38,049 bases of DNA from a virus, in the IMG/VR virus record IMGVR_UViG_3300020201_000010, one strand, 5' to 3'. Shown piece after piece: positions 1,219 to 38,049 of the stretch (the first letter of the stretch is position 1; each line of letters opens with the position of its first letter). Made by a program: the position numbers and the translations under genes. The notes beneath the pieces are model-generated. The model did no database searches and was not told where the DNA came from. It was given only the letters and a program-made list of their open reading frames with translations.

Positions 1219-3672
1219 ATGCCTAATATCCCCGGTAATCCTATTCTACCTGGTACGTACAGTGAAATCCAAACACTTACTTCCGGAGTTTCACTTCCCG
1301 GTAGTACTCGTTTGGCAGTTCTGCTCGGCGAAGGAGCCCGAGTCGAAACGCTTATTGCTTCCGCCAATGGCTTCGGTAATGACGGTTTAAATTCCACATT
1401 TACATCTAATAATGGAGCAGATGGTCGCCATTTTAGACTTTCAAATGCACCAATTATTTCAAATAGAACAACTCTATTTCGTAATGGTATACCCCTTGTT
1501 GGTACACAAGGCACTAATAACAGTACAGCTTTCGCTACCAACTTTGATTACCGTCTACAAATTTCCAACGGGTCAATTGAACTTCAGGCAGCTTCTCTCG
1601 TTGATCAGGGAGGATCTTACTACCTTACCGGTGCATTAAACTCAGGTAACGGAGTTATTAATGATCTTACTTTAACCGATGCAAATGCTCCAACTGAAAC
1701 TTGGACTCTGCGCTGTGTCTCAGCCCGTAGAGATGGTTATGGTAATGCAATAGATGGTTATTCAAAATTTACAGCCCAAGGATCCGTTTCGGGTAATGTT
1801 CTTGATGGTTATGGCAACGTTATTATTTGGCAATCAAATGAAATTGTTAGAACAAACGGCATTTTATCATTTTCAATTGAAGATGGCTCAACGGTGTTTG
1901 TTGAGGGTGACCGATTTACTGTGCTGGTTGCAGGTGGTGCACTAACAACAGGAGAATCATTAGTTGCCACTTATATAGCTGTTACCGATATTAATTCACC
2001 AACACTTTTTACAAACATTAATGACCTTGTATCAAAACATGGATCACCAAGCTTATCAAATACATTATCATTGGGCGCACAGCTCGCGTTTGCAAATCAA
2101 CCTCCTGGTATTTATGCTCAGCAATGTGCACCTCCATTACCACGTAGACTTTCCTATGTGCTAGATGAATCATCAACCGGTGAAACTAATCTTGAAGATT
2201 TAGAATTTACACTGCCTCTAAATGTAACACCTGATTTTGATAGTCAAATTAATTTCTTTGTAACAGATCCTATTACAGGAGTTGAAACACAACTTTTACC
2301 AAATAAAGTTGCGTTTTATGACCCAACCATAACAGCTAATCCAAACTCATTCGTATTTGGATCCGGTTATACATATTCCTATACAGTAATTCTAACTGAT
2401 TCAATTCAAAAAGAAGGAACTGATGGTGTATTAACAATTGTTAACGGAACTCATGCTAAATTAAGTTCAGCATCTGTAACGTTTGACATTTCTGATTTAA
2501 GCGCAACAAGAAGTATTAAAATATTTGATGCCAACAACGCTCAAAATAATGGTACATTTTTAATCACAGCAGTTGCAGATGGCATCGTGACCATTACAAG
2601 AGCTGGAGGTTTCGTAGCTGAGACTAGCTTGAGTTTCCAGGATATTGATTCGTCAACAGAAAGCTCAATAGTGTTATTTACTGATGATTTAGCTCTAGCA
2701 GCTGGTCAATCATTACGATGCACACTTGTTGATGTAAAAGATGCTGATTTCTTTGACCCAGGTTGGATTGCAGCCTATGAAGAACTTGAAAAAATTAATA
2801 TTGACATTGTTGTTCCGCTGCCTAATCAGTTAATGTCTCAAGTCTTTGCAAATGGTAAACAACATGTATTAGCAATGAGTAATATTAAGAACCGTAAAGA
2901 GAGGGTATTATTTATTGGTGCAATTCAAGGATTAACGCCTGCAAATGTTATTGGAACTCAACTCGCTGCAGTAGAAGATATTGGCGTATTAGAAGGCATT
3001 CAAGGAGATGATACTGACGAAGTGTTAGCAGGGTCAATTGAAGATTTAACTGACTATGGCGTTCAAAATTCTTATGGTGACACATTTAGAGTTGTTTATT
3101 TCTACCCTGATGAGATTGTAGTAAATATCGGAGCTGACAGAACATTAGTAAGTGGTTATTACATTTCCGCTGCTGCTGCTGGTTTTCTTTCTGGGATTCC
3201 AAATGTTGCCGTTCCTTTGACTAACAAAACATTATCTGGTTTTGCTATTCTTCGAGATAAGCTTTACCGTCCAATAACACTAGAACAACTAGTTAGTGCA
3301 GGAATAACAGTATTACAGCCAGCTGTTGGTGGCGGACGAATTATTAAAGGACAGACTACAACCAACAGTGGATTTGTTGAGGAACAAGAGATTTCAATAA
3401 TATTTATTCGAGATCGTGTTGCAAAAGCAATGAGGGCAGGATTTCAAGGTTTTATTGGTCAAGCTGATGCCAAGACGGTTCAGGGAGCTATGGTGTCAAG
3501 AGCTGTTGGCTTACTAAATGGCTTTATTGGTCAAGGTTTAATTTCAGCATATAAGGGTTTGAAAGTTTTCAGAGACACTGTTGATCCAACGCAATGGAAT
3601 ATCAGTGTAAGTGTACAGCCTATATATCCAATAAACTATGTGTTCGTTAAAGTATCAATTGGATTGATTTAA
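1219..3672 (+). CDS. Contractile tail sheath protein (817 aa) with inserted outer beta-domains
   Basis: AAGGA RBS; N-terminal PGTYSE motif; C-terminal sheath signature (AAAAG...PLTNK...LVSAGITVL...GQTT...EISIIFIRD...FIG...V.VQPIYPINYV.V). Confidence 0.92.
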   Translation: MPNIPGNPILPGTYSEIQTLTSGVSLPGSTRLAVLLGEGARVETLIASANGFGNDGLNSTFTSNNGADGRHFRLSNAPIISNRTTLFRNGIPLVGTQGTNNSTAFATNFDYRLQISNGSIELQAASLVDQGGSYYLTGALNSGNGVINDLTLTDANAPTETWTLRCVSARRDGYGNAIDGYSKFTAQGSVSGNVLDGYGNVIIWQSNEIVRTNGILSFSIEDGSTVFVEGDRFTVLVAGGALTTGESLVATYIAVTDINSPTLFTNINDLVSKHGSPSLSNTLSLGAQLAFANQPPGIYAQQCAPPLPRRLSYVLDESSTGETNLEDLEFTLPLNVTPDFDSQINFFVTDPITGVETQLLPNKVAFYDPTITANPNSFVFGSGYTYSYTVILTDSIQKEGTDGVLTIVNGTHAKLSSASVTFDISDLSATRSIKIFDANNAQNNGTFLITAVADGIVTITRAGGFVAETSLSFQDIDSSTESSIVLFTDDLALAAGQSLRCTLVDVKDADFFDPGWIAAYEELEKINIDIVVPLPNQLMSQVFANGKQHVLAMSNIKNRKERVLFIGAIQGLTPANVIGTQLAAVEDIGVLEGIQGDDTDEVLAGSIEDLTDYGVQNSYGDTFRVVYFYPDEIVVNIGADRTLVSGYYISAAAAGFLSGIPNVAVPLTNKTLSGFAILRDKLYRPITLEQLVSAGITVLQPAVGGGRIIKGQTTTNSGFVEEQEISIIFIRDRVAKAMRAGFQGFIGQADAKTVQGAMVSRAVGLLNGFIGQGLISAYKGLKVFRDTVDPTQWNISVSVQPIYPINYVFVKVSIGLI

Positions 3673-3713
3673 TAATTAGTTTAGATATACTTATATAAAT
3701 ATTAGTAAAGATT

Positions 3714-3747
3714 AAACCGATCATTTTCTTTTGAACTTGATCGGTTT
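3714..3747 (+). terminator. Inverted repeat / putative intrinsic terminator after sheath gene
   Basis: AAACCGATCA (3714-3723) and TGATCGGTTT (3738-3747) form a perfect 10-bp stem with a 14-nt loop, followed by TGTGTT. Confidence 0.5.
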
Positions 3748-3760
3748 TGTGTTATATAGT
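3731..3760 (+). promoter_or_regulatory. Possible sigma70-like promoter for HNH paralog 2 (leaderless)
   Basis: TTGAAC-N16-TATATA (or N18-TATAGT) with TGn extension, just before ATG 3765; same TGTTATA-N8-ATG spacing as the promoter at 6453-6480. Confidence 0.35.
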
Positions 3761-3764
3761 ATAT

Positions 3765-4910
3765 ATGCCTGCTAAAATTATAATACCTGAAGAAATATTA
3801 GAACAAGCATTTAAATTATATAAAAATAATATTAGTTGTAAGAACGTAGCCAAACAACTTAAGATATCAAGTACAGCTTTAGCCAGGGTTTTACGAGATA
3901 ATAATTTATTATCTATTAGACCAAAAAATGGCCCGAACGCTCCAAGATTAACAGATAAAAATTATGAAGATATAAGAAAACTGCATAGAGATGGTTTAGG
4001 CATTAAGAAAATAGCAAAAAAATTAAAATTTAATTATGGTCAGATTAAAAAAGCATATTTAGATATGGGTTTGCTTAAACAAATTTACACATATCCGGAA
4101 AAAGAAAGAAATAAAAATAAAAAATGTAAAATTTGTTTTTTTACAAAAGATATTGAAAGTTTTTGTGCTGGTATTCGTGAAGGGAAAACTAGGCAGGTTA
4201 AAGCTTACTATAATACTTGTCAGGAGTGTTTGATAATATTTGGTAAGTTATTTTCTCGTGCATGTTATTATGATAATGCCACGTTAAAATTAATATATTA
4301 TAAAAAAGATTTATATGGAGCTTACTTATATTATCAAGATTATAAATTATTTTTAGATTATATAAAAATAGCTTATAATGATTTTAACGATCCTTATAAA
4401 ACATCTGCTAGATTAGTTATTAAAAGTAAAAATACAAATGTTCAACAGCGTAAAAGGCGCGGAGAAAATGATAGAGATTATATTAGAGCAAAAACAATGA
4501 GATATTTAAAAGAATGTATATTTAAAGATTCTCCTAGAAAAAAAGTTGATAATTTTTTAAAGGATCATCTTGGTTATAGCTCAAAAGAATTTAAAAAACA
4601 TATATTTTCATTAAAAGAAGATTGGATGATAATCGAAAAGTCTGGATATGGAGCATATAGATTATCATCATGGGATGATAATGATTCATCAACATGGGTA
4701 TGGCAAATAGATCATATTAACCCTGTTGCTAATTATAAATATAATTCTGTAGAGGATCTGCAATACAAAGAGTGTTGGAGTTTGGAAAATTTACGCCCAT
4801 TAAATGCAAAGATAAATTGCCTAGATGGAACAAGAGGCATAAGGCATAATAACAGAATCATTCGTGGTCAAGAAGCGAAAAACTTAAAAAATATTATCAC
4901 TTCACAATAA
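3765..4910 (+). CDS. HNH(N)-family endonuclease, paralog 2, with N-terminal HTH repeats and CxxC zinc ribbon
   Basis: Likely start ATG 3765 (MPAKIII) rather than TTG 3747; two HTH-like segments (CKNVAKQLKISSTALARVL; IKKIAKKLKFNYGQIKK); CKIC...CQEC; WQIDHINP...CWSLENLRP...N. Confidence 0.8.
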   Translation: MPAKIIIPEEILEQAFKLYKNNISCKNVAKQLKISSTALARVLRDNNLLSIRPKNGPNAPRLTDKNYEDIRKLHRDGLGIKKIAKKLKFNYGQIKKAYLDMGLLKQIYTYPEKERNKNKKCKICFFTKDIESFCAGIREGKTRQVKAYYNTCQECLIIFGKLFSRACYYDNATLKLIYYKKDLYGAYLYYQDYKLFLDYIKIAYNDFNDPYKTSARLVIKSKNTNVQQRKRRGENDRDYIRAKTMRYLKECIFKDSPRKKVDNFLKDHLGYSSKEFKKHIFSLKEDWMIIEKSGYGAYRLSSWDDNDSSTWVWQIDHINPVANYKYNSVEDLQYKECWSLENLRPLNAKINCLDGTRGIRHNNRIIRGQEAKNLKNIITSQ

Positions 4911-4954
4911 CTTTAATTATTTTCACTAAAATATAATTTGATACTGAGTATTAT

Positions 4955-5377: not shown

Positions 5378-5386
5378 ATAACTAAT

Positions 5387-5638: not shown

Positions 5639-5680
5639 TCTATCATATCATTTGTGTAGATGCAAGTTAAATATAACTTT

Positions 5681-6446: not shown

Positions 6447-6452
6447 ATTTTC

Positions 6453-6480
6453 ATTATAACATATAGTGGCGTAATTGCAA
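6453..6480 (-). promoter_or_regulatory. sigma70-type promoter with extended -10 driving the antisense cassette (predicted leaderless mRNA)
   Basis: Minus strand reads TTGCAA-N16-TATAAT with TG one base before the -10; ATG at 6446 lies 6 nt after the -10; no SD. Confidence 0.7.
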
Positions 6481-6629
6481 TGGTAAAAACGTGACTATGA
6501 TACTAATATTTTATTTTATATATTCTTGCAGAACCAGATTTCGATAAAGTTTGAATTTATTATGTTTAATATTATTTAAATTTACAACTTCAAATAATTT
6601 TAAACAGGCTCATAATAGAAAGGTTTAGT

Positions 6630-8195
6630 ATGAAGTTCAAAGAATTAAACAATGAACAAAAAGATGAAATTAAAAGATTACATTCTGAAAATTTAACAGC
6701 TAATGAAATAGGAAAGCGTTTAGGCGTCACTTGCACCAGTATGATCGGTTTTATTAATAAGCTTAATTTAATTCCTAATCGAATAAAAAAAGCATATCCG
6801 GATCAGGAATTTAAAAATTTAATTATTAAAGAGTATAATAAAGGTAAGTTTGAGAGGAGAATAAGTACAGAGAATAATATAAATATTTCATTAGTAAGAA
6901 ATACAATTGATTACTATATTAAGCATCACGGTTTAATTAGAAATAAATTTGAGCCGCGACCACAAAATTTAACTCAAAGTGTAGTAAAAATGTATAAAGG
7001 TTCAGACCGCCCATCTATTGGCAGTATAGCAAAGTTCTTTAATCGTGATAAGAAAACTATAAGAAAATGTTTACAAGAAGCCGGATTAAAAATTACATGT
7101 ATCAGAAAAAATAAAAAAAACGACTTTTTATATGATATTGGTTTAAGAAAGTGTAAAACTTGTTCATCCATCAAGAAAACAAACTGTTTCCCAGGCCGAA
7201 AGATAGAGTGTTTAAAGTGCGTTAGCCTTTGGGGTCGTTTATATAATATATATAAAAGCACAAATTATCTTAAAGTTTTTGATCTAATTATGAATAAGGA
7301 TTTGAAAAACGGTATAGAATATTATAAAAAATATGAGCTTGATATTAGTGAAAAAAAGAAAATAGAAAAAAAATTATATGAATCAACTTTAAAATATAAA
7401 TGTGCAAAATTTTATCCAATTATTAATGAAAAAAGAGAATGTGCCACATGTCATTTTGTTAAAGATAAGATATGTTTTATATCAGGGCCTAATAAATCTA
7501 CAGATAGAATATGTACTATGTGTCAAGATCTTTTTGCAAAAATAAAAAATTATTCAAATAACAAACTTGATCTTAGTAAAAATAATACTGAATTATTATT
7601 GGATATTTATAATAATAAAAAATGGCATGATGCTAAAAAATATTGTGAATGGAGGTCTGGTTATAAAAAAGAAATTACTCTGTCTAAAGAACCATCAAGA
7701 ATTATTAGAAAATCGGTTTCTTGTGCAATAGAACAATATTTTTCTAATAAGAATTTAAGCAAAGGGTCATCTTGCTTTGAAAAACTGCCATTTACAGTAA
7801 AAGAGTTGAGAGATCATTTCGAATCTCTCTTTGAACCGTGGATGAATTGGAACAATCACGGTTCTTATAGTAAAGCAACCTGGGATGATAACGATAAATC
7901 AACCTGGTTATGGCAAACTGATCATTTTACCTGCCACTCCATGTACGAATACTCAACTATGAATGATGAACATTTTAAAGCATGCTGGGCTCTTAGTAAT
8001 CTTCGACCTTATTCTGCGAAACAAAATGTTATCGATGGTTACAGTCGAATCAGGCAAAATCATATTTTGTTCAATACATATATTAATGAATGGAGTAAAA
8101 ATAAAAATATAATATTAAAACAAGAATTAAATATAAATTACAATTTTGAAAATAGAAATCCGGTTATAATAGGTAATATTATTGTATCTCTTTAG
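6630..8195 (+). CDS. HNH(N)-family endonuclease, paralog 3 (521 aa), with HTH repeats and two zinc-ribbon-like CxxC..CxxC units
   Basis: TANEIGKRLGV and IGSIAKFFNRDKKTIRKCL HTH-like segments; CKTC..CLKC and CATC..CTMC; HFESLFEPWMNWNN...WQTDH...CWALSNLRP...N. Confidence 0.82.
   Translation: MKFKELNNEQKDEIKRLHSENLTANEIGKRLGVTCTSMIGFINKLNLIPNRIKKAYPDQEFKNLIIKEYNKGKFERRISTENNINISLVRNTIDYYIKHHGLIRNKFEPRPQNLTQSVVKMYKGSDRPSIGSIAKFFNRDKKTIRKCLQEAGLKITCIRKNKKNDFLYDIGLRKCKTCSSIKKTNCFPGRKIECLKCVSLWGRLYNIYKSTNYLKVFDLIMNKDLKNGIEYYKKYELDISEKKKIEKKLYESTLKYKCAKFYPIINEKRECATCHFVKDKICFISGPNKSTDRICTMCQDLFAKIKNYSNNKLDLSKNNTELLLDIYNNKKWHDAKKYCEWRSGYKKEITLSKEPSRIIRKSVSCAIEQYFSNKNLSKGSSCFEKLPFTVKELRDHFESLFEPWMNWNNHGSYSKATWDDNDKSTWLWQTDHFTCHSMYEYSTMNDEHFKACWALSNLRPYSAKQNVIDGYSRIRQNHILFNTYINEWSKNKNIILKQELNINYNFENRNPVIIGNIIVSL
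8174..8187 (+). promoter_or_regulatory. Candidate phage late-promoter motif TAATATTATTGTAT upstream of tube
   Basis: Near-identical to the motif at 1161-1174 upstream of sheath; lies inside the last codons of the HNH gene. Confidence 0.3.
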
Positions 8196-20284: not shown

Positions 20285-21121
20285 ATGTGGAATCATGTAA
20301 ATAAATTAACAGAAAAATGCTGTGAAGTTTGTGGTTCTTTATATGATGGAACTATAAATAGTAAACGCTGTTCAGAATTTTGTAAAAAACAATGGTTGCA
20401 AGATTATTATAAAAATAAAAAACCAAATAATTTAAATAATTTTTCTATACCAAGAGTTTGCATCATTTGTAATAAACAATATTTAATAAATGGCAATAAA
20501 CAAAAAACATGTTCAAATAATTGTTATAACCAAAACGTCAGGGCTGAAGAAAGAAAAAAATATCATAAAAATAGAGAATCTATCACTTCTAAAAAAAGAG
20601 AACAGGAAAAATTAAGAAATATTAAAAAATATCCAAATTTTATTTCACAAATAAGATTACCTTTATTAAAAGATGAAGATAAAGAGTTTTTTAAACCGCT
20701 TGATTTAATATTAACGGATGAATTAAAAACAAAAGAAAAAAACAAACGTAGAAAACACAGAAGAGACAATGATCTTTCTTATAAGTTAAAAAATAATATT
20801 TCAAGATCTATGAGATCTTATTTAATTAATAATAGTAATGGATCGAAATTACATTTTCTAACTTATACAATTAATGATTTAAAAAATCATTTAGAATATC
20901 AATTTGAATCTTGGATGACATGGGATAATTGGGGCATCTATAAAAACGATGGCATACGTAAGTGGCATGTAGATCATATTATACCACAAAGTATTTTTAA
21001 TTTTATTAACGATGATAACTCAATGAATTTAAGAGAAATTGAAGCATGCTGGGCATTAAATAATTTAAGACCATTATGTGCGCTTGAAAATATTAAAAAA
21101 GGTAATAAAAATGCCATGTAA
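20285..21121 (+). CDS. HNH(N)-family endonuclease, paralog 4 (278 aa), with two CxxC...CSxxC zinc-finger repeats
   Basis: CEVC...CSEFC and CIIC...CSNNC; HLEYQFESWMTWDNWG...WHVDHIIP...CWALNNLRPL...EN.KKGN. Confidence 0.85.
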   Translation: MWNHVNKLTEKCCEVCGSLYDGTINSKRCSEFCKKQWLQDYYKNKKPNNLNNFSIPRVCIICNKQYLINGNKQKTCSNNCYNQNVRAEERKKYHKNRESITSKKREQEKLRNIKKYPNFISQIRLPLLKDEDKEFFKPLDLILTDELKTKEKNKRRKHRRDNDLSYKLKNNISRSMRSYLINNSNGSKLHFLTYTINDLKNHLEYQFESWMTWDNWGIYKNDGIRKWHVDHIIPQSIFNFINDDNSMNLREIEACWALNNLRPLCALENIKKGNKNAM

Positions 21122-23165
21122 TGTAAACTCACTTAATATAACAATAGTTTCACCACCTAGTATAATTCTACCAGGATTTTCTCTACCTAGTCTATCACCT
21201 ATACAGCCAAATCTCAACATTGATTTTCCTGAGATTCCACTAGATGTACTAAGTTTAATCCAAACTCTTATTCAAAAACTTCCATTTGGGATGAAACTTA
21301 ATCCAATTGTGCCAACAGAACTCATGAATGATATCATGAATTTTATATCAAGTGTTCTAAGTCAGCTTAGCCCATTCCTTTCTCTTTATTCATTTATTCA
21401 GGCATTGTTAAATCTAGTGATGTGTATTATTGACATAATTTGCGCACTTTTTTCCCCATGGGATCTTATTCCTGCCGTCATAAAATTATTCACACAATGT
21501 CTGCCGCCATTTCTTGATCTTTTCCCATGGATCGCATTATTAGTTATGATTGTAACATTTTTATTATTAATAATTGCTTTAATTATTTATATTATCACGG
21601 CTATAATTAAAATTATAGAAGATCTTATTGCAAATATAGTATCTTTAGTTAATGGTCTTCAATTGCAAGATGAGGATGCAATTATTGCAACGATTACAAA
21701 AATTGCAGCTCTTTTATGTAATCTTGAAAACATATTAGGAATTTTAGTAGCAATTGCATCAGTGATAGCAATTATTGAAGCTTTAGCTAAGCTGGCAGGT
21801 CGACTAATCTGTAGTGGTGGAGATTCTGACTCATGTCCTCCATTTGTCGTTGCTTCTCCAGATGGTATAATAACAACTTCCGGAACACTTCTTTATTACA
21901 AACAAATTAATTATGATTTAAGAAATTTTTCCGGTTTTCCAGCGGCCTCTCTTCCAGCACAGAGAGTGGAGTCATGGCAGATTTTTGATGAGGCTGTTAA
22001 TCCTATTTCAAGCATAGATGAAATTATAGCACCAAACAGCCGAGGAACAAACTTTTGGCCAATTGAAGCTACCTATGACGGATATTCCAATCCACAAATG
22101 GTACCTTACACGGTCGAATTGACATTAGAAAATTTTGATCCCGAACCATTTCATTCAGGAGATCTTGGTGGGGCTAGAAAATTCATAATTAAAGAAGCTG
22201 TAATTCGTCAGGAGCCAACACCATATCCAATAGGCTTTAATAATCAGCCAAATCCATCTTTAAATGTACAGGGGACGGCATCATTAATTGGTGGTTTAGT
22301 ATATGAAGCAAATGGAATAACACCTTATAAAGTTAATGGTGTAAATGCAACATTAGGTACGTTTATACATTATGATGCTAGCATATTTTTTCCAGCTTTC
22401 GATGATGGTTATATTATACCAAATATTGGATTTACTTTATCATATACATATCCTGTTTTATTACAAAATAATTTGATAACTGTTGGTTGTATCCCTGAAA
22501 TTAGCGCAGAGATAGCGGCACAAAATGCAAGATTAAATACTGAAGGTATACAATCTGTTTTTGATAAGATGGGCCCGTTACCAAACCCAACAGCGGCATA
22601 TGAATGTTCTATACAAGCTTTACAAAGGTTACGTTCTGATTTAAATGGAGATACCGCGTTAATATTTCAAGATGAGATAACATTATGTTTATTAAACTTT
22701 AAGAAAGAAGTTTTAGGGTCTTATTTAAATGCGTTAGTTGCAGCTGCGAGCGTGTTTAAATCAACAGTAACTATTGATCCTGATGTTCAGTTTATAACCA
22801 GACCAATAAAAACAACTGTAATATTAAAAGACCCAACAGGCTCAATCTTATCAACAAGCATTCCTGAAGAAGTCAGTGGTGTGATGGACGGATATTTATC
22901 TGGAAATGTAACGCTAGGTAACATTACTGGTTTTGTGTATGATGGATATGAAAGTTTCTTAGCTGATATAACTTCTGATGTAGCTGGAGATGGATATTTA
23001 AGTGTTCAGTATAACGGGCAATATTTTCAAGATATTATAATTGCTGAAGGTCAAACGACTAAATTTGCGATAAGACAAATACCATATACATTTGTTGATG
23101 CAATTAGTTCTGAGACATTACCAAGAAGAGATGCTGGTGACGTAAGTAGAAATGGTGGTAATTAA
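21111..23165 (+). CDS. Spike-adjacent virion protein with long hydrophobic/amphipathic helices (684 aa)
   Basis: Likely start ATG 21111 (MPCNVN); 27-residue uncharged stretch WIALLVMIVTFLLLIIALIIYIITAII plus flanking amphipathic helices; beta-rich C-terminus; five DGY motifs. Confidence 0.7.
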   Translation: MPCNVNSLNITIVSPPSIILPGFSLPSLSPIQPNLNIDFPEIPLDVLSLIQTLIQKLPFGMKLNPIVPTELMNDIMNFISSVLSQLSPFLSLYSFIQALLNLVMCIIDIICALFSPWDLIPAVIKLFTQCLPPFLDLFPWIALLVMIVTFLLLIIALIIYIITAIIKIIEDLIANIVSLVNGLQLQDEDAIIATITKIAALLCNLENILGILVAIASVIAIIEALAKLAGRLICSGGDSDSCPPFVVASPDGIITTSGTLLYYKQINYDLRNFSGFPAASLPAQRVESWQIFDEAVNPISSIDEIIAPNSRGTNFWPIEATYDGYSNPQMVPYTVELTLENFDPEPFHSGDLGGARKFIIKEAVIRQEPTPYPIGFNNQPNPSLNVQGTASLIGGLVYEANGITPYKVNGVNATLGTFIHYDASIFFPAFDDGYIIPNIGFTLSYTYPVLLQNNLITVGCIPEISAEIAAQNARLNTEGIQSVFDKMGPLPNPTAAYECSIQALQRLRSDLNGDTALIFQDEITLCLLNFKKEVLGSYLNALVAAASVFKSTVTIDPDVQFITRPIKTTVILKDPTGSILSTSIPEEVSGVMDGYLSGNVTLGNITGFVYDGYESFLADITSDVAGDGYLSVQYNGQYFQDIIIAEGQTTKFAIRQIPYTFVDAISSETLPRRDAGDVSRNGGN

Positions 23166-28591: not shown

Positions 28592-31500
28592 ATGGCAAAC
28601 TTAAGAGTTACACGTTTTAGAGTTGTAGATAGTAGAAATTTAAGAGCTGAGTTTACTGAGCCTCTAAGCGGTCTAATTGGCACTCAGAATATTACTGTCA
28701 TATCTCAAATTAACGGAGTTCCTGATGCAAAAGTGCTTGATGTAACCGTTTCAAATAATTTATTATATATTGTAACAAGACCGTTAGTTCCCCATGCATC
28801 ATATCTTGTTACATTTAAATCTACAAATGCAATTAGATTTAAATCTAAAAACGGAACAGCATTTTTATTTGAAGATGGTAAAACAAATGTTTTATTAGCT
28901 CTTGGTCCAGAATCAGCTACCAATGAAGTTAAACCATTGTTATATAAATATATTTCTGAAAATATTTATGATGTTAACGAAGGTAGTTTAGTTGATGATG
29001 CTTTAAATGTTCAAGCAAATGTAATTGCTCAAGGATTACATGATATTGGTCAAGCTAAAAATGATAATTATTTAGAAATTACTGTAACTGATGAAAGAAA
29101 AATTCGTGGAAGCGGCCCATTTGATCGTTTAAATGAAGAGGGGGCATTTGAAGTTTTACGTGTTGGAAAAAAAGCAACAGGCTCAACAACATCATTATCA
29201 TTTTCTTACGAATCTTTTCCAGCAGATTTGGTCAGCGTATTAAGCACTAATATTGCTAATGAGAGTCTTGTTATTGGTACTGGCGCTGGAACATTTAATA
29301 ATTTAGTTTTAACTGTTAATAATTATCCTGCGACATTATTAAGTTCAGTTGTTTTTCAATATCAGGATGGTTCTTCATATGAATATGATATTGCACGATT
29401 TGGATATCAAATAAATGACCCAAAGTATGATCGTTCACATGCATCAACATATGTTTTATTAAATGATAATCAATTTAAATTAAATGATATTATTTTAAGT
29501 GAAATAGGTTTTCAGCCTCCAGGATCCGGAGATATAGTTGTTGTTTCTTATCAATACAAAGATCTTGGAAGATTTGTAACTGAAAGCTCTATAACATTGT
29601 CTGAAGTTCTCAACATTACTCGTGAAGTTGTTCCAGCATTATTAACATCATTTAATTTACAACATGCCCCAGTTGTTACTATAAATGATAATATACCAAC
29701 ATCTAATGGAGTAACTTTTCTTGACCCATATTCTTATCCACCATGTTCGGCGCCTCACCGTGCTTTTATAAAAGAAATACCTTATCGTTTAGAAAGCTTA
29801 CCAAAAGGTGTTGGTGAATATACTGTTAATTATAATACTGGGCAAGTTTTTGTTTATGGCGCAGAAAAAGCTGATGGGACTGGTAACTTTCCACCAACAG
29901 CTTCTTACAATTACAGAAAAACATATGTTGAAGGGTTAGATTATAATTATGATTTTGAAACAAACGATTTAGTTGCTAACCCTTTAAGAGAGTTGATCGG
30001 ACAAAGTATAGTTTTGAAATTCGCTATGGAACTAGTTTTAAATCCTAATACGGATTATATAGCAAATACACATATTGAAAATTTGGAAGAACGTATTGAT
30101 AATCGTTTACTAAGTTTAAACAGTTTACAAGTTTTGAATACACCAATTACCAATGTTTTTAGACTGTACAATGAGACAACTGGAGAAATTTATACGATAA
30201 ATCGTTTCACAAGTAATAGTGTTATTTTTTCTTCTAGAATTCCTCCAAGAATACCTGGTGTAATCGGAGAAATTGCTACATTTGAAAATGTATTATCTGA
30301 AACATTAATTGTAAATAGCGAATTTGATAATACATCTTCCGTTAGAATTTTTGAAATATTATTAAACAATAATAATATTATATCAGCAACTGATAATTCT
30401 ATCGGTTCGTCTTTTAATTCATCTGTAACATTTAGTAGGACAGATATTTTTCAAAAAGAAGTCTATCTTGATACTCAAACTCCTGATAATCTTGATAATT
30501 ATAACAGGTTGAGTGTTGGACAGTACCAGGTTAATTATAGTAACGGAATTGTTTATATAGCAGTTTCGTCGATCCAGGATTTAGATATTGGTTCGGTTAA
30601 TTATAAACGACCAAAAATTAAAACAGCAAATGATCATATTTTATCTGTATCAGATCTTTATTTTAGCATATCTCCAATTAAAGGTGTAAATAAAAGAATT
30701 GATTATATAAATTTTGATGATACTGGTTTATATCCAACAACATTTGAAAGAAGCGATGAAAGATTCTTGAGTAATGATGAAACTCTTCCTTACTTAGTAG
30801 AGTCTGGAACAATATTGGTCACAAATGATATTAAAAATGTTAATCATATCTTTGACCTTTATGATTTAAGCAATAATATTAATAATACTGACTTTTCTTT
30901 TGGCAGCACATTTACAAACAATATTATTACGCTTAATTTATATGGTATACAGAAAAAAGAAGTTAAAACTATCGAACCAGGACTGATAGTTAATGCTTCA
31001 TTTATATCTCCAGGCGCAGAGATTATAAGGGTAAGTTCAGTTATCAGAATTGCTGATGGTATAGAGCTATGGAATAGCTCAGGTGTTTTTCTAGATTACG
31101 CAATCACTTTACCAGGGATAGGTTCTCCAGTCGCAGGAGAAGATGTTTTAATTATTTATAACGTACAACTAAATGTTGGGTCGACACCTATAGTTGATTA
31201 TAATTTAGGCGAATTACTAGTTGATTATAACTATCTTGCTGATGAAATTATTGTTAGTTATGAGTATGGTGATAACGTAATTAATTTTACAGAATCAGAT
31301 TCTATTAATGAAGGTGAAGAATATTATGTTACTTATAAGGCAGGAGCTTTAAGAGACTCCCTATTAAGTAATTTTGGAACATTAGTTGATTTACCAATAA
31401 TGAATACATTTGACGTTTCTTTAAATAGAGAGATATACCGCGACGCATTACAAGGGGCATTACAATCATTTACAAAAGGCCCAACTATACCTGCAATGAA

Positions 31501-34500
31501 ATTATTAGTATCCTCTATAACAAAAATTGACCCAGAACTCATTGAAGGCGTTTTTATATTTTGGTCTTTAGGTATTTCAATTTTAAATCCAAATCAACCT
31601 AAAGTTTATGGTGATTTACAACAATTACCTGGTAAGTTTGATAGCGGAATATTGTTTAAAAATTCAGATGATGTGGTTACCATACCGGTGTCATCTAATT
31701 TAAGATTGGAAGATGGATCATTAGCTTTCTGGATTATCCCTGAATGGGATGGTTTAGATAATGATGCAACTTTAGAGTTTTCATCTGTAATAAAAGATGG
31801 TTATGTTCTTTCTGCAAATAATATTTACATTGGTGCCAGTAGTTATAATCCAACGTTTGATATATATGGTAATTTCTCTGTTCACAGAGATGATGCCAAT
31901 AGCCCATTGGGTTTACCATCAGCTGTCTTTACCCAGACTGGTTTATTTATTTATTACGATGATATTGAAAAGAAATGGAATGTTCTAGCAAAAGATGTGT
32001 CTGATAGTGTTGTTAAAAAATATTCAGGTAAAATTGTTTCATCTGGTGAGGTTTATAATGTCAAATTTATTCCTGGCCTTGGTGATATTTCTGATGTTTT
32101 AAGATCAATTACTAACGAAATTGAATTTACTTTTAATATTGATTCAAATGATTTATCATCACCTGATGGATATAATTCTAGTGACGGGTATGTGCCAGGA
32201 TATTCTTTTGATGGCATAACATTCATGGCTGATAATAATCATTACTTTTTAGACTTCGGAGTTAATGAATCAAAAAGTAGATTTTCTATGTACAAAGATG
32301 GGAGTGGTTATTTAAACTTTCAGGTTTGGGATAAAGGTACAAATATTGGTAAAGGAACTTATAAAGTAAGCGCTGATATTTCATCTTGGAAATCCGGTGA
32401 AAAACATTTTATAGGAGCATCATGGAGATTATCTTCACATGACCAAAAAGATGAGATGCATTTATTTATTGATGGTTTTGAGGTGGCAAATATTCTTAAA
32501 TATGGTGGTCGTCCAATAGCTACCAACACTGACAGGTTCAGAACAGTTAAGCCAGAATTAGTTGCAGGAACTATAAGTAAAAAAATTATAAATGGTCAAA
32601 CACTGTTTACCCAGATTGGATCTGATTTGGTTTATTCTGAAGATGTTGATTTTCAAGCAGAAGGTATTGTTCCAGGTGATACAATTGATATTTTAGAAAC
32701 CGGATTTGGTAGTTTTAATATCTTATCTGTTAGCGGAGGCTATCTAACATTAGATGATACTATGTCGGCAACATATCCAAATGCAACATTTTCAGTTAAT
32801 AAATTTTCAGCCGTCGTTGAAACGCAAATTGATTTATACAGCAATATAGCAGTTTATGTTTTGCATACTGATGGTACCGAAACGGAGCTAGCAGGATTAC
32901 GAGCAGAGCTTCCTGATTATCAAATAGATAAAAACTTATTTAACCAAAATGTATTAACAATTTTGGGCGACGCTGATGTCGGTGATAAAATATTAATAAG
33001 AACACTTGGTTTAAACTTTAGAAGAGCTAAAGATACATTTTATATATGGAGCCCAACAAGTTTGATGAAAACTCAAATGCCACCACCAATTAACTTAAAT
33101 GAAGTAAGCATAAAGCCAATCATGTCTGTACTTACTTCTATTGGTCCAGATAATTCTACATTATCTTTGGGTGTATTTTATTCCGATCCTATTTTACCAT
33201 CAGGCCAACCATCAAATGCTACAGAAGGCAGAACATTATCAATACGAATAACAGGAGATAATACTAATTTTACAACACCTGTTAATGTTATTGTTAATGG
33301 AACAGCTTTTTCCGGAGCAACAACAGAAATTATAAGCTTTACATCAGCAACTACAATGCTGACAACAGAAAAATGGGAAACAATATCTGATTTTGAGGTC
33401 GAGGTAAAACCTTATGATACAGCTCAACCAGCAACAGCCTTTGAGGTTAAAGAGGCTTATTCAGTTACTGAAGCAAATGGTAATAATATTTTTGCAATAC
33501 TAAGATTTAGCATACCTGTGCAACAAGGCATAACACTCACAGGTGGTAATAATCAAACGAGCATATTTAATTCTGCCGGCGGAGGTTTCCCCTATAGTAC
33601 AGATTTAATTAATAAAAAATTAATTATATCATCTCCGTTAGCATCTAAAGGAGTTTACTCAATTCTTGGTGCGTCAAGTACAGAGTTAATTGTCGACCCA
33701 CCTGTCCCAGGATCAGCATTCACTTCCGGTATTTTTGGTATCTATGATACTCCAATTGGCCGTTCAGGATTTTCAAATGGTTTCTTTTATCTAGAAACTG
33801 TTGGATTAGAAGGTGTGCCATATGAATTAAATAAAGGTTATTATGATATTGACTACTCTACCGATTTAGTCGTTAAATTTGACCATCTTGATAATATCAA
33901 TCTGTATATCGGTTCAGATTTAAATGGAACACATCAGGCTAATGCTATTTTAGACGAATTAAGAATTAGTTCTCAAGGTGAAACTGATACCCGTGTTGGC
34001 GAAGTGATAAGTGTGAAAGAAACTTCGTTTACTAAAGAGTATTTTGCATTAAGATCTTTTGTTCCAACAAGATCAACATTATTATATTTAAATTTTGAAA
34101 AACCAATAAAAAACTTAGCTTCTACATATCTTTCTTTCTCAAAAGATTTTATTCAATCTTCACAAAGTGTTAATGGTGAGTTTAACCAATCAACAGTCAT
34201 TACTAAAAAACCGTTTACGTTTGATAATGCTGGTTTATTTAATACAAAAGCTCAGGGCACCATCGAGTTCTGGATAAGTCCACGTTTTGATACCTTTAAT
34301 GACCCAAATGAAAGATACTATTTTGATGCCTCATCATATGTAATAGAAAATATTACGAGTATAACAAATAGTGTTATTAAATTAAACCAATCAACTAAAA
34401 CTATTTATAGTATTCGTTTAGCATCTGATACTGATGAAAAAGGAATCAATTATTTTATCGGCGGGTCAATAGCACCAGATTTTAAAACAGTTAATTTAGG

Positions 34501-35266
34501 AACATCATTACCATCTCAAAAAACAAAAGTTATTGTTTCATATGTACCAACTAGTCTATCAGGTAATAGAATATCTATCTATAAAAGTAGAGGAGGATAT
34601 TTGGTATTTAAAGTAACCGCTGATGATGGTCAAGAATATGAGGTCGCTCAACCAATCTTTTGGCAAAGAGATACTTGGCACAAAATTAGAGCTTGTTATA
34701 AATTTAACTCTACTAACAATAATGATGAATTAAAATTATTTATTGATGGAAAATTAACCACTGTCATCCTGTTTGGTCAAGGATTGTTGTTTGGGTCCGG
34801 CTTTACATTTGGTCAAACATCATTAAATAATATCACTGGTTATTTAAAAGCTGATATTAATTTTACAGATCCAATAAATCAATTCTTTGTTGGATCTAAT
34901 TATCTTAGTGCAAAATCTGCTCAAGCAAGAATAGATAATTTAAAGTTAAGTAATATTATACAACCAATCGTAACTATTGGCGGAAAAGATATTGACCCAA
35001 GTTATATTGCTAACCTAGAACAGGTTTGCCCAGCTGTCCCAGATGCATTTACTACTTTTTTAATGGATTTTGATACTTTAGTTAAAAAAGCAGATTCGTA
35101 CGCTATATTAGTAGATGAGAAATATGGTATTTTTAATTTTACTTTAAATATCATTGATTCTTTTCGCATAATATTGAACGATCAAAAAGCTAAGCAGATT
35201 TTAGAAGAATTAATTAAGGCACTCAAACCTGCCCAAAGTAGAGTTAAATTAAATTATATTTATTAA
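28592..35266 (+). CDS. Giant baseplate wedge/outer protein (gpI/gp7-like) with two LamG/ConA-like domains (2224 aa)
   Basis: YR..L.......KGPT...M..L (gpI-like) and terminal LI..LKPAQS; LamG motifs GSLAFWI.P / W..GEKHFI..SW / LFIDG / LDELRIS and GTIEFWISP / WHKI / LFIDG / IDNLKLSN. Confidence 0.7.
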   Translation: MANLRVTRFRVVDSRNLRAEFTEPLSGLIGTQNITVISQINGVPDAKVLDVTVSNNLLYIVTRPLVPHASYLVTFKSTNAIRFKSKNGTAFLFEDGKTNVLLALGPESATNEVKPLLYKYISENIYDVNEGSLVDDALNVQANVIAQGLHDIGQAKNDNYLEITVTDERKIRGSGPFDRLNEEGAFEVLRVGKKATGSTTSLSFSYESFPADLVSVLSTNIANESLVIGTGAGTFNNLVLTVNNYPATLLSSVVFQYQDGSSYEYDIARFGYQINDPKYDRSHASTYVLLNDNQFKLNDIILSEIGFQPPGSGDIVVVSYQYKDLGRFVTESSITLSEVLNITREVVPALLTSFNLQHAPVVTINDNIPTSNGVTFLDPYSYPPCSAPHRAFIKEIPYRLESLPKGVGEYTVNYNTGQVFVYGAEKADGTGNFPPTASYNYRKTYVEGLDYNYDFETNDLVANPLRELIGQSIVLKFAMELVLNPNTDYIANTHIENLEERIDNRLLSLNSLQVLNTPITNVFRLYNETTGEIYTINRFTSNSVIFSSRIPPRIPGVIGEIATFENVLSETLIVNSEFDNTSSVRIFEILLNNNNIISATDNSIGSSFNSSVTFSRTDIFQKEVYLDTQTPDNLDNYNRLSVGQYQVNYSNGIVYIAVSSIQDLDIGSVNYKRPKIKTANDHILSVSDLYFSISPIKGVNKRIDYINFDDTGLYPTTFERSDERFLSNDETLPYLVESGTILVTNDIKNVNHIFDLYDLSNNINNTDFSFGSTFTNNIITLNLYGIQKKEVKTIEPGLIVNASFISPGAEIIRVSSVIRIADGIELWNSSGVFLDYAITLPGIGSPVAGEDVLIIYNVQLNVGSTPIVDYNLGELLVDYNYLADEIIVSYEYGDNVINFTESDSINEGEEYYVTYKAGALRDSLLSNFGTLVDLPIMNTFDVSLNREIYRDALQGALQSFTKGPTIPAMKLLVSSITKIDPELIEGVFIFWSLGISILNPNQPKVYGDLQQLPGKFDSGILFKNSDDVVTIPVSSNLRLEDGSLAFWIIPEWDGLDNDATLEFSSVIKDGYVLSANNIYIGASSYNPTFDIYGNFSVHRDDANSPLGLPSAVFTQTGLFIYYDDIEKKWNVLAKDVSDSVVKKYSGKIVSSGEVYNVKFIPGLGDISDVLRSITNEIEFTFNIDSNDLSSPDGYNSSDGYVPGYSFDGITFMADNNHYFLDFGVNESKSRFSMYKDGSGYLNFQVWDKGTNIGKGTYKVSADISSWKSGEKHFIGASWRLSSHDQKDEMHLFIDGFEVANILKYGGRPIATNTDRFRTVKPELVAGTISKKIINGQTLFTQIGSDLVYSEDVDFQAEGIVPGDTIDILETGFGSFNILSVSGGYLTLDDTMSATYPNATFSVNKFSAVVETQIDLYSNIAVYVLHTDGTETELAGLRAELPDYQIDKNLFNQNVLTILGDADVGDKILIRTLGLNFRRAKDTFYIWSPTSLMKTQMPPPINLNEVSIKPIMSVLTSIGPDNSTLSLGVFYSDPILPSGQPSNATEGRTLSIRITGDNTNFTTPVNVIVNGTAFSGATTEIISFTSATTMLTTEKWETISDFEVEVKPYDTAQPATAFEVKEAYSVTEANGNNIFAILRFSIPVQQGITLTGGNNQTSIFNSAGGGFPYSTDLINKKLIISSPLASKGVYSILGASSTELIVDPPVPGSAFTSGIFGIYDTPIGRSGFSNGFFYLETVGLEGVPYELNKGYYDIDYSTDLVVKFDHLDNINLYIGSDLNGTHQANAILDELRISSQGETDTRVGEVISVKETSFTKEYFALRSFVPTRSTLLYLNFEKPIKNLASTYLSFSKDFIQSSQSVNGEFNQSTVITKKPFTFDNAGLFNTKAQGTIEFWISPRFDTFNDPNERYYFDASSYVIENITSITNSVIKLNQSTKTIYSIRLASDTDEKGINYFIGGSIAPDFKTVNLGTSLPSQKTKVIVSYVPTSLSGNRISIYKSRGGYLVFKVTADDGQEYEVAQPIFWQRDTWHKIRACYKFNSTNNNDELKLFIDGKLTTVILFGQGLLFGSGFTFGQTSLNNITGYLKADINFTDPINQFFVGSNYLSAKSAQARIDNLKLSNIIQPIVTIGGKDIDPSYIANLEQVCPAVPDAFTTFLMDFDTLVKKADSYAILVDEKYGIFNFTLNIIDSFRIILNDQKAKQILEELIKALKPAQSRVKLNYIY

Positions 35267-35277
35267 AAGAGAGAATA

Positions 35278-38049
35278 ATGACTACACCCAAATTACCTGT
35301 ATCAACTTTACAAAACTTGTTTCATGATTCTCAAAATATTGATAAATCAGATATGGATCTTGAACAAGCTCATAATATACAAACTTCTGCGGCTATTGTT
35401 GGTAACTTCTTTGGCTCAGGCGTATTGGCAGATAGCTTAATTCCTAATATAATTTTTAATTCTGATGAGCTTACACCTGTCCAAGCAGGCCTTGTTTCTG
35501 CAAATAATTTTGACGGAACAGGTCTCTCCGTAGCTAAACAACCCACTGATATTAATCTTGGTAATCAGCTGGAAGTAATATTGACAGGATCAGAAGTGTT
35601 CGGTAGATTAAGTACTAAGGTTTGTATTATTGGATTGTCTTTTAATGATGATCTCATTATGGATAGAATGTATTTTTATCGTAATGGAACCAAAACTACA
35701 TCTCAGCATTATAAAAGAGTACTGACAATTCTTTTTAATGATTTTAAAGGTAATAATTACTGCTCAGCTAATCATGGCGGAACAATAATTATTCAAGAAG
35801 CAAAACCATTTCAACTTTCTAAACGCCCAATAACTTCCAGTCAAGATGAACAACCAAATATATTCTTTCGTGATTTTAAAGTGGCAGACCCTTCTAAAGC
35901 ACTATATGTTACGATTCAGGATGGTATAGGTCCTCAATATAATGCTGATAGTTTAAAGATTAATATTACTGGTCAACCATCCAGAACATTAGAGTCAGGC
36001 GATACCTTATCAAGATTAGGTGAAAAGTTTTTATCACACTCAGATAATATTCAAAAAGTAACTATACTCTTAGGTGTACAACCTAATGATAGTGCAAGTT
36101 TAACTGACCGCTTTAACTGGTCAGGTGATATAATTTTTAGCATTCATAAATTACAAACAACAGTCAATTGTGTGAATGATATCATTCCAGGTCTAGCAAT
36201 TGAATTTGAACCTAACCCAATTGCACTTGTTGAGTTAAGTTTCAGCCAAGCTGAATTATTATCAGCTGGTTATCTATTAACCGATGTAGCTCAACCTGTT
36301 GATTTTGTTGTCAACGGATCTAGCGTCTCAGTGCCAGGAGGTATTAATAAAGACCAGTATTATGCATTTACTATTCGCAGATCCGGATCTGCTGGTAATG
36401 GAACTATTTTTGCTGAAGTTGGAACGGACAGAACTGAGGATGCAAGATTAACTTTATTTAGTAGTGGGACATGGGCAGATGTAGTTGAGGAGGACCTATG
36501 GTACCAAATTTGGTCAGATTCCGTTCAAATTGCTTCTGGTCAAGGCTATGATGCCGGTAACGGGATAGCTTTTACTAAAACAAAAACAGATCCTATAACT
36601 GGTTCCGAAATTGATAACCAAGAAAAATATTTTCCATTTGTTACAACGGGCTATAGCAGTTTGAATACAGGCGTCTTAAAAGCTGTTAAGTTTGCAAGTA
36701 TTGAGGAGCAAGATCAGAAAACTGGCAACCAAGTATATTCACGTCAACAATTTGTTCCAGAATTCAGCTTTGTTGGTGCCGCAGATCTTTCAACTCTGAA
36801 AGAAACATCTGACCCTTTAATTGTTGGTTGTATAGAAGATAATAATCCTAAAGATAATAGCACAATTATTGCGACACAAAATTTCCCTGGCTCAGCTAAA
36901 GGTGATAAGTTTACTATAATAGATCCTAGCCCTGACTTATTATCACAACAATTGCTTGGAAGTAAGTTGTTGCCGGATTATAATTTTTCAAACGTTGGTT
37001 ATTTGGTTGCTAAAGTTGATGTATGCATTGATGGATACGGAGATGTTAATGGCGATGGTCTTATAACAAATGAAGATTTACTATTGCTTTCAGATTTAAT
37101 TGGAGAATCAATTCATTATCCATCCACACAACAAAAGCTGGTTGATGGGTATTTCACATTGTTAAATCTTTTAAGAGCCGATGTTAATGGTGATGGTTAT
37201 GTATCTGCGCAAGATTACGATCTTCTACAACAATTTTTAAATAAAGAAATTAATGCATTTCCAGTTGGCACAAGTTTTACTCATATAGATTTAACTGTTC
37301 AGAATATGGTTGGGCGATATGACGGTTACTATAGTTGTGATGGATATATTGATCTTGACGGTTATGTTTTAAATCCAGAGGAAATAGATCCTACTGATGC
37401 TTTATATTACGGAAATTATTTACCTTCAATAATTGACTCTGATGCTTACTATAGAGCCGTACCATTTGTCGCGTTAGAATATCGAGTAGTTCCTCAGGAT
37501 TTCTGGCAGGAGTATTTATTATCTGGCAGCTCTAATGCTAGAACTGTTCCATCTTCTTATGTTAAAGATACGACTGGTTTGCTTAGCTGTTCTGTGGCAA
37601 GTCCATTTACATGTGAAGACTCATTAGAGAGAGATCCTGTAGCTTGTGATCCTGGCCAGAACATATTTTTCTTTCCATCTGATATCGTAATTGCTCCTGG
37701 TGGACAGATTAAAACGCCTACTGGAGATTTTTACAAGAATGATTTAGAGATAGCTACATTTATTTTACAAATGCCTGAGACACCATTGAGTGAAGTGTCA
37801 TTAAATATATTTGACAAGCTCTTACGTGACCAGGGTAACGGACTAACCAGTGCTGGTTTTGCCTGCGCTCGATATGCCGATTGTTCTACTGTGCAAGCTG
37901 AGGATTTGGCATTAAATAGAATACGTTTTGATGTAGCAATTCAGTCCTTTAATAAAAACTTAGATGGGTATGATGAAATCGAAGGCTATGGAATAGTTGT
38001 AGATGATACGATTGGCGTTTATTTAGATCATGGTACTGGCATACTTAAA
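35278..38049 (+). CDS. Baseplate-attached fibre / receptor-binding-like protein with dockerin-like domain (3'-truncated, at least 924 aa; absent from the ORF track)
   Basis: ATG 35278, open to window end (MTTPKLPVSTLQNLFHDSQNIDKSDMDLEQ...FFGSGV). The N-terminus resembles the F..GQ.L...D...EQ...G.GV baseplate-attachment motif. Contains GDVNGDGLITNEDL...ADVNGDGYVSAQDY. Confidence 0.75.
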   Translation, partial: MTTPKLPVSTLQNLFHDSQNIDKSDMDLEQAHNIQTSAAIVGNFFGSGVLADSLIPNIIFNSDELTPVQAGLVSANNFDGTGLSVAKQPTDINLGNQLEVILTGSEVFGRLSTKVCIIGLSFNDDLIMDRMYFYRNGTKTTSQHYKRVLTILFNDFKGNNYCSANHGGTIIIQEAKPFQLSKRPITSSQDEQPNIFFRDFKVADPSKALYVTIQDGIGPQYNADSLKINITGQPSRTLESGDTLSRLGEKFLSHSDNIQKVTILLGVQPNDSASLTDRFNWSGDIIFSIHKLQTTVNCVNDIIPGLAIEFEPNPIALVELSFSQAELLSAGYLLTDVAQPVDFVVNGSSVSVPGGINKDQYYAFTIRRSGSAGNGTIFAEVGTDRTEDARLTLFSSGTWADVVEEDLWYQIWSDSVQIASGQGYDAGNGIAFTKTKTDPITGSEIDNQEKYFPFVTTGYSSLNTGVLKAVKFASIEEQDQKTGNQVYSRQQFVPEFSFVGAADLSTLKETSDPLIVGCIEDNNPKDNSTIIATQNFPGSAKGDKFTIIDPSPDLLSQQLLGSKLLPDYNFSNVGYLVAKVDVCIDGYGDVNGDGLITNEDLLLLSDLIGESIHYPSTQQKLVDGYFTLLNLLRADVNGDGYVSAQDYDLLQQFLNKEINAFPVGTSFTHIDLTVQNMVGRYDGYYSCDGYIDLDGYVLNPEEIDPTDALYYGNYLPSIIDSDAYYRAVPFVALEYRVVPQDFWQEYLLSGSSNARTVPSSYVKDTTGLLSCSVASPFTCEDSLERDPVACDPGQNIFFFPSDIVIAPGGQIKTPTGDFYKNDLEIATFILQMPETPLSEVSLNIFDKLLRDQGNGLTSAGFACARYADCSTVQAEDLALNRIRFDVAIQSFNKNLDGYDEIEGYGIVVDDTIGVYLDHGTGILK

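Follow-up and report, generated by a model that had tools for sequence, protein, structure and literature searches.

SdgB, a GT-B enzyme, glycosylates a minimal DSD motif within the tandem SD repeats of staphylococcal adhesins (PMC8561734). Virion glycosylation by phage-encoded glycosyltransferases has been described for mycobacteriophages (Freeman et al. 2023, as cited in PMC11256854), and O-glycosylation of tyrosine, through beta-Glc-Tyr and beta-Gal-Tyr linkages, is found on the S-layer proteins of Gram-positive bacteria (PMC2943079). Here we examine the tripeptide Asp-Gly-Tyr (DGY) in a stretch of 38,049 nucleotides (nt) from IMG/VR virus record IMGVR_UViG_3300020201_000010; the whole of this stretch is referred to below as the window. 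The window holds the contractile-tail module of an uncultured phage that has no close cultured relative. DGY is a protein-level surface tag on outward-facing tail proteins, comprising the outer domain of the sheath, peripheral baseplate proteins and fibres, in a large clade of uncultured huge phages. As discussed below, it may be a glycosylation sequon whose acceptor would be the tyrosine. A full-text search of papers and preprints for the DGY motif, also in combination with phage tail fibres, gave no mention of it.

The 22 translated open reading frames (ORFs) of the window, with 12,319 residues in total, contain 19 copies of DGY. The expectation from per-protein composition is 2.06, in agreement with the roughly two copies estimated in a preliminary description of this DNA. 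Over 2000 trials of within-protein shuffling, the mean was 2.09 copies and the highest count was 8, and a dipeptide (Markov) model predicts 4.98. DGY ranks first of the 8000 tripeptides under both the composition and the Markov models, with Poisson p values of 1e-12 and 1e-6, respectively; the excess is thus retained under a proper background. Such naive p values overstate independence, because the 19 sites group into about ten local clusters and do not represent 19 independent events. The significance of the excess in the window is settled by the relatives described below. At the nucleotide level, the pattern GAYGGNTAY matches the window 19 times, in every case in frame 0 of the coding strand; the remaining frames and the opposite strand have no match. 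Nine combinations of codons spell the tripeptide. Selection therefore acts on the protein, as had been proposed earlier from the free choice of codons. A DNA-level signal, such as a methylation or restriction site or a Chi-like motif, was ruled out by the same restriction of all 19 matches to frame 0 of the coding strand.

Five proteins, all encoded on the plus strand, carry these sites. The tail sheath (1219..3672), an 817-amino-acid (aa) protein of which residues 642-815 match phrog_2839, has DGY at residues 172, 179 and 196 (nt 1732-1740, 1753-1761 and 1804-1812), within its non-conserved N-terminal or insertion part. A 684-aa baseplate-region protein (P0001; 21111..23165) has five copies, at residues 323, 432, 593, 611 and 627 (nt 22077, 22404, 22887, 22941 and 22989), so that five of its six DG dipeptides belong to DGY. 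In the 2224-aa wedge protein (28592..35266) the three copies at residues 1069, 1192 and 1198 (nt 31796, 32165 and 32183) all lie in a LamG/ConA-like jelly roll that spans approximately residues 1010-1320 (31619..32551). The last gene of the window encodes a dockerin-bearing baseplate protein (P0033; 35278..38049) with seven copies, at residues 585, 623, 639, 682, 688, 694 and 896 (nt 37030, 37144, 37192, 37321, 37339, 37357 and 37963); its full length is 972 aa, the last 48 of which lie outside the window. These 18 sites had all been reported previously and were found again where they had been placed. One further, lone copy occurs at residue 469 (8034..8042) of a 521-aa ORF (6630-8195) that has only a weak, sub-threshold match to HTH_38.

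Other tail genes could be named through family matches, which identified a tube-like protein (phrog_985), a tube initiator, a gp25-like sheath initiator and a gp6/gpJ-like wedge subunit (phrog_6), in addition to the sheath. Within the window, DGY is missing from the tube, initiator, gp25 and gpJ-like proteins and from the proteins of 644, 1682, 698, 278 and 561 aa. The ORF translations thereby confirm the absences listed in the preliminary description, whose term "virion-wide" is nevertheless overstated, as the major capsid protein of a complete relative (see below), the tube and the inner baseplate proteins are devoid of the tripeptide.

A megablast search with 10.8 kb of the window against a phage collection returned no match, the top matches of the sheath among phage records share just 26-29% identity, and searches of IMG/VR with single window proteins found no matches, so that alignment queries were needed to retrieve relatives. 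An alignment of the 32 homologues of the 684-aa protein retrieved 80 IMG/VR loci, on contigs of up to 481 kb. Against an expectation of 81, these 80 related baseplate loci contain 493 copies of DGY, an excess of about sixfold. This corresponds to five to six copies per locus, as opposed to about one copy per locus, at a single conserved site, for every other strongly enriched tripeptide; DGY is the sole enriched tripeptide with multiple sites. The signal depends on the order and the identity of the residues. Permutations of the tripeptide occur at 0.8-2.0 times expectation, and the ratio of observed to expected counts is 0.38 for NGY, 0.60 for EGY, 0.26 for DGW and 1.3 for DGF. Among the tripeptides with a hydroxyl-bearing third residue, DGY ranks first (5.8), followed by DGT (2.2) and DGS (1.45). 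The positions flanking DGY carry at most 0.4 bit each, which rules out the tripeptide being a piece of a larger repeated domain, and Tyr and aliphatic residues are in excess at position -1.

The distribution among proteins is also shared by the relatives. In 19 loci that were inspected, DGY lies in the orthologue of the 684-aa protein, in the big wedge protein and sometimes in the gpJ-like protein, whereas the inner-tail orthologues of the same loci are without it, with one exception. A further 24 large contigs of the clade all show an excess of DGY on the coding strand of the tail genes. The pattern is not a general trait of contractile-tail phages: in T4, phage G, phiKZ, Tunturi_5 and LE2-3 its density is 0.11-0.19 per kb, and no multi-site clusters occur among the matches listed.

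A complete 435-kb relative, IMGVR_UViG_3300027740_000003 (hereafter G001), was analyzed across its whole proteome. DGY is the most over-represented tripeptide of this phage, with 105 copies against 21 expected (p = 4e-39), and 74 of the 105 are found in 15 ORFs, all but one of which lie within 195-300 kb. The virion genes contain 81 copies against 5.4 expected, compared with 23 against 14.1 for the rest of the genome and 1 against 1.7 for an enzyme island located between the baseplate and fibre genes. The major capsid protein of G001 (phrog_2522) contains none. DGY is the strongest short-sequence signal in this proteome, and it marks the proteins that face the outside world. The richest carriers are a 1208-aa T7-type tail fibre encoded on the minus strand (203762-207388; L083:13762-17388), with 19 copies, and its neighbours, one of which has 7 copies in 943 aa. 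Within the T7-type fibre, a module of 95 residues is repeated approximately 2.5 times, and each copy reads ...DAATRNYVDGY...HPVNDGYVAI...GGATDGYVLTWD....

Conservation among homologues differs from carrier to carrier, being close to invariant in the dockerin protein and partial or absent in the sheath and the 684-aa protein. The dockerin protein has 264 homologues, nearly all of those listed with a PF00404 match. Of 50 aligned sequences that share about 50% identity, all have DGY at residues 585 and 896, and the counts for residues 682, 639, 688, 694 and 623 are 49, 47, 45, 42 and 38, respectively; these sites rank among the most conserved residues of the protein, and the relatives have two extra near-fixed sites, 711 and 902. 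The five sheath relatives with at least 55% identity comprise three that keep all three DGY and two that each have DSF at one site, and in relatives of 47-51% identity all three copies are replaced (NGL, GGT, QDT, DAN, DSN). Among the 32 homologues of the 684-aa protein, DGY is present at site 432 in 16, at 611 in 14 and at 323 in 3, while those at 593 and 627 occur in this phage only.

In the wedge, DGY is found at 1069 in 25 of 44 relatives, at 1192 in all 25 occupied columns and at 1198 in 24 of 39. In the relatives, the wedge loop formed by residues 1184-1200 grows into (DGYx)n arrays, for example PDGYADGYADGYVDGYGYVDGYTDGYV, with conserved sites flanking the array. Neighbouring units of these arrays use differing synonymous codons, and recent replication slippage was ruled out as their origin on this basis. 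DGY has also been gained repeatedly at new positions: its lineage-specific columns are far commoner than those of analogous tripeptides, with a rank of 8 of 4023 in the wedge.

The replacement of the tyrosine follows an unusual pattern. We compared 16 DGY-majority alignment columns with all further columns of these alignments in which Tyr is conserved, counting sequences rather than independent events; the contrast is very large. At the DGY-majority columns Tyr is substituted by Thr, Val, Ile, Ser, Leu and Asn, and by Phe in just 9 of 164 cases (5%), whereas Phe makes up 508 of the 917 replacements (55%) at the comparison columns. The Asp and the Gly mostly outlast the loss of the Tyr, giving DG[TSVILE]. 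Judged by this pattern, the Tyr of DGY looks like an exposed add-on residue with an indispensable hydroxyl. Asp-Gly looks like a generic beta-turn or loop scaffold, and the element specific to the clade is the Tyr that directly follows it.

In the relatives, a candidate enzyme is encoded next to the carriers. In all 26 informative records of the clade, a gene for a GT4-like glycosyltransferase stands directly after the dockerin gene. Its G001 representative (238028-239233; L084:12028-13233; minus strand) encodes a 401-aa GT4-like enzyme of the GT-B type that matches Pfam PF13439 and, in the PDB, the GT1 family. This synteny is derived from the relatives, and in the phage studied here the expected place of the gene starts just beyond window position 38196. 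The N-terminal half of the GT4-like protein shows 51-68% identity between records, which is above the values of several structural proteins. Behind the G001 gene lie seven GT2 genes and three genes for nucleoside-diphosphate (NDP)-sugar epimerases or dehydratases; a GT2 block occupies the same position in 24 of the 26 records, and the two records without it still have the GT4-like gene. In the relatives, a candidate for the phage-encoded modifying enzyme envisaged by the preliminary description thus lies beside the baseplate genes. One record (G012:C1:165178-166292; L123) has a GT4-like gene that is interrupted by a single frameshift, located in the EGFF codons. The frameshift may be an assembly error rather than the sign of a real pseudogene, and this copy was for that reason rejected as a natural knock-out.

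We regard a tyrosine O-glycosylation sequon as the best reading of DGY, while holding it tentatively and short of calling it probable. Tyr O-glycosylation is the most plausible chemistry because a tag read through a hydroxyl fits most of the observations and because a conserved GT-B enzyme is encoded beside the carriers in the relatives. In the mechanism that we propose, the Tyr would be presented after Asp-Gly at hairpin tips and in flexible loops, at times multiplied into (DGYx)n arrays, and its hydroxyl would be the acceptor of a phage-encoded glycosyltransferase, for which the product of the conserved GT4-like gene directly after the dockerin baseplate gene is the prime candidate. The GT2 and NDP-sugar genes behind it could then extend the glycan, and the resulting coat on the tail periphery might provide shielding, stability or contact with the host surface. 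In its full form, a virion "glyco-code" in which a turn-tip Asp-Gly-Tyr is read by the GT4-like enzyme of the clade and glycans from the GT2/NDP-sugar island coat the whole tail periphery, this scheme is possible, though we hold it with considerable doubt. The post-translational modification sequon suggested in the preliminary description has circumstantial support from the confinement of the tag to outer virion proteins, the near absence of Phe as a substitute, the loop arrays and the GT4-like neighbour in 26 of 26 records, and is advanced here as a proposal.

The comparison with the described systems reveals both likenesses and differences. A short motif concentrated on surface-exposed proteins is found here, as the counts for the virion genes and the rest of the genome of G001 demonstrate, and it lies in loop or turn contexts. 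In contrast, a Ser/Thr acceptor of the kind used by SdgB and in mycobacteriophages is not found, since the selected residue is Tyr and DGT and DGS reach only 2.2 and 1.45 times expectation. The SdgB/SdgA system combines a cytoplasmic GT-B enzyme with a three-residue acidic/hydroxyl motif, tandem arrays on surface proteins and a gene for the enzyme near those for its substrates (PMC8561734). The corresponding features of the phages are a GT4-like GT-B gene beside DGY-rich proteins, including those with (DGYx)n arrays. The DGY acceptor would, however, be Tyr instead of Ser, the sites also occur singly at beta-turns of folded domains, and the carrier is a phage virion.

The S-layer system shares with the proposed sequon the attachment of glycans to Tyr on prokaryotic surface proteins; it differs in using a lipid-linked glycan and a membrane oligosaccharyltransferase during secretion, and no sequon is reported in the review that describes it (PMC2943079). 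Phage virion proteins, unlike S-layer proteins, fold in the cytoplasm. For mycobacteriophages the likeness is that phage glycosyltransferase genes are reported to be associated with glycosylated surface virion proteins. Here, by contrast, the capsid and the tube lack DGY, a Tyr within a fixed tripeptide is the putative acceptor, and neither the hosts nor the phage lineage are related. The glycans of mycobacteriophages reportedly sit on C-terminal extensions, rich in Ser and Thr, of the capsid and tail-tube subunits.

Several observations weigh against a glycosylation sequon. The non-virion proteins of G001 do not avoid DGY, which stands at 1.6 times expectation in them; this matters because a promiscuous cytoplasmic enzyme might select against the tripeptide there. 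In the GT4 EX7E motif of the G001 enzyme the second Glu is replaced by Gln (it is Glu in G012). All 27 clade records are rich in DGY, and the GT4-like gene is found in each of the 26 informative ones, which leaves no covariation contrast between tag and enzyme. Glycosyltransferase islands of phages can also have DNA or polymers of the host envelope, instead of proteins, as their targets. Finally, Thr, Val and Ile as substitutes for the Tyr would equally suit an ordinary exposed strand position without hydroxyl chemistry, and several DGY sites are invariant and look structural, such as the hairpin IDL-DG-YVL and a dockerin calcium loop.

The structural setting of the wedge sites bears on a different account of the tag. 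An AlphaFold2 (AF2) model of wedge residues 980-1330 (mdc609114c195), with a predicted local distance difference test (pLDDT) score of 77, adopts a LamG/ConA-like jelly roll. VIA-align gave a Z score of 10.4 to domain 4 of AbnA (root-mean-square deviation 3.1 over 147 residues), Z scores of 9-10 to clostridial Hc-N lectin-like domains and of 8-9.8 to the LG domains of agrin, neurexin and laminin; the Foldseek match is weak (E = 3e-3). The fold match is rated as moderate because the best background Z of VIA-align is 7-8. DGY 1069 forms an Asp-Gly turn between strands with a pLDDT of 96, while 1192 and 1198 lie in a long variable loop (residues 1184-1203; pLDDT 64), the one that bears the arrays in relatives. 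Near the C-terminus of the wedge, residues 1977-2061 show a second, weak match to Laminin_G_3 (23.3 bits, under the cut-off), and the protein may hold at least two ConA-like domains.

This fold is often used for glycan binding, and the DGY loops might accordingly bind host-surface polysaccharides directly and without any modification, through minimalist antibody- or lectin-like contacts of weak, multivalent affinity. The fibre proteins of G001 have the highest densities of DGY, the tag is restricted to outward-facing proteins, and loop length and DGY copy number vary among relatives in the manner of hypervariable binding loops, all of which would suit direct contact with the host. We nevertheless consider this account unlikely. 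Stickiness or CH-pi stacking should accept Trp or Phe and any order of the residues, but DGW and DGF are at 0.26 and 1.3 times expectation, the permutations are not enriched and Phe almost never substitutes for the Tyr. The dockerin-protein sites, near-invariant across relatives of about 50% identity from varied habitats, do not behave like residues that track a receptor, and the sheath carries the tag too.

In the dockerin protein the sites occupy several kinds of structural element. Its AF2 model (ma3b2c236f8ec) has a pLDDT of 81.6, and the best Foldseek matches are baseplate chains of phi812. The type I dockerin domain comprises residues 587-655 (37036..37242) and matches Pfam PF00404 with 39.9 bits against a cut-off of 22.9. 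It has PDB profile matches to cellulosomal dockerins, a Foldseek match to 4uyq_B with a target-normalised template modelling (TM) score of 0.71, and the helices of a duplicated F-hand (598-606 and 644-654 in the AF2 model), which come after the calcium loops. No cohesin family was matched in a general scan of 15 window proteins (E <= 0.01 or 0.001), and no dedicated cohesin search was made. DGY 585 is located at the end of a strand that leads into the first dockerin loop, its Tyr being the first residue of the Pfam match; 623 is at a helix end; 639 occupies positions 5-7 of the second calcium loop (DVNGDGY); and D694-G695 forms a two-residue hairpin turn (IDL-DG-YVL).

The calcium loop offers an explanation for a minority of the sites. 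The metal-binding turn that had been suggested as one role of DGY holds for residue 639 and, in relatives, for residue 593, which stand at positions 5-7 of a genuine calcium loop as in type I dockerins and EF-hand-like loops (PF00404); in addition, the Tyr of 585 abuts the dockerin domain. It does not extend to the at least 16 other sites, which have no Asp or Asn at loop positions 1 and 3 and no acidic residue at position 12, and which occur in unrelated folds. The EF-hand-like DxDxDG loop is thus no general explanation. The folds that carry DGY are as diverse as the sheath insertion, the LamG-like jelly roll, the dockerin flanks and the T7-type fibre.

A purely structural role is suggested by the hairpins in the models. 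DGY would then act as a hairpin nucleator, in which an Asp-Gly beta-turn is followed by an aromatic residue at the start of a strand, with a few calcium loops such as that at 639, and the motif would have spread by descent and would have no reader. The strand-DG-strand arrangement, with the Tyr opening the next strand, is seen at wedge residue 1069 and dockerin-protein residue 694; the enrichment of Tyr and aliphatic residues at position -1 resembles cross-strand pairs, and Asp and Gly mostly persist where the Tyr is lost. The arrangement is not seen at 623, which is at a helix end, at 682-688 and 896, which are in low-confidence loops, or at 1192 and 1198 in their long loop, so that some invariant sites (pLDDT 43-55) are not modelled as hairpins. 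A structural role also leaves the enrichment in outer proteins unexplained, as the beta-rich tube, hub, gpJ-like and capsid proteins are without DGY, and it would not exclude Phe, which is an equally good aromatic residue for a strand start. Tandem (DGYx)n arrays that persist with diverged codons, and the limitation of the pattern to this clade, with T4, phiKZ, phage G and two other phages unclustered, likewise argue against it. On balance, this explanation also appears improbable to us.

Two stretches of the dockerin protein, residues 681-700 and 891-909 (in the consensus, GRYDGYFDCDGYVRLDGY and NLDGYxxxDGYG, respectively), are nearly invariant, and their pLDDT in the monomer model is only 43-55. 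If the model is taken as a guide, they may need a partner, a metal or an adjacent subunit in order to fold. The invariant DGY pairs within them (682-694 and 896-902) are typical of partner-folded segments, and many virion proteins that are otherwise unrelated carry the tag; both would be expected of a docking motif read by a protein, which could be a cement or decoration protein, a chaperone of fibre assembly or adjacent subunits of the baseplate. No protein emerged as a candidate reader, a stoichiometric structural partner is poorly reconciled with lineage-specific gains and arrays of variable length, and so short a motif offers little for specific recognition between proteins, making this a rather remote prospect. 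There is next to no chance that amino-acid composition, local duplication or a DNA-level signal explains the excess: although the clustering of the 19 sites inflates the naive Poisson p values, this account is contradicted by the shuffles, the Markov model, the frame and strand specificity, the mixed codons and the replication of the excess in at least 80 related loci and 27 large contigs with clean negative-control phages, and chance, composition and DNA-level causes are excluded.

If the tyrosine O-glycosylation sequon is the correct reading, no earlier virus would have a protein glycosylation system linked through Tyr, and the glycosylation of phage virions would gain its first defined sequon. 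The reading would reveal the way in which the tails of uncultured huge phages are decorated, with a bearing on adsorption, stability, evasion of immunity and defence, and the annotation of exposed virion proteins, and it would offer a compact, transferable pair of tag and enzyme for site-specific Tyr glycosylation. Should DGY be a binding or docking motif instead, it would still be a simple marker of receptor-binding loops and of virion proteins that face outward, for a clade most of whose structural genes match no known family.

Some further observations concern the carriers and the surrounding genome. The N-terminal part of the 684-aa protein (21111-23165), about 250 residues long, is conserved and has hydrophobic helix-like stretches (LLLLILALIEYII...), with invariant positions C105, C130, C203, C234 and C242-P243. 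These sequence features suggest that the N-terminal half is a membrane-active or a disulfide- or metal-bound part, which would be unusual for a protein of a baseplate module. In the G001 proteome, the tripeptides most over-represented after DGY are DII, KDI, IKD, IKN and IIE. G001 also encodes a TubZ/tubulin-like protein near the tail module (218299-219666; L097:8299-9666; minus strand; PF00091 and PF22453), whose gene is neighboured by the sugar island on one side and by replication genes on the other, namely those for a DnaB-like helicase, a UvsW-like helicase and a sigma factor.

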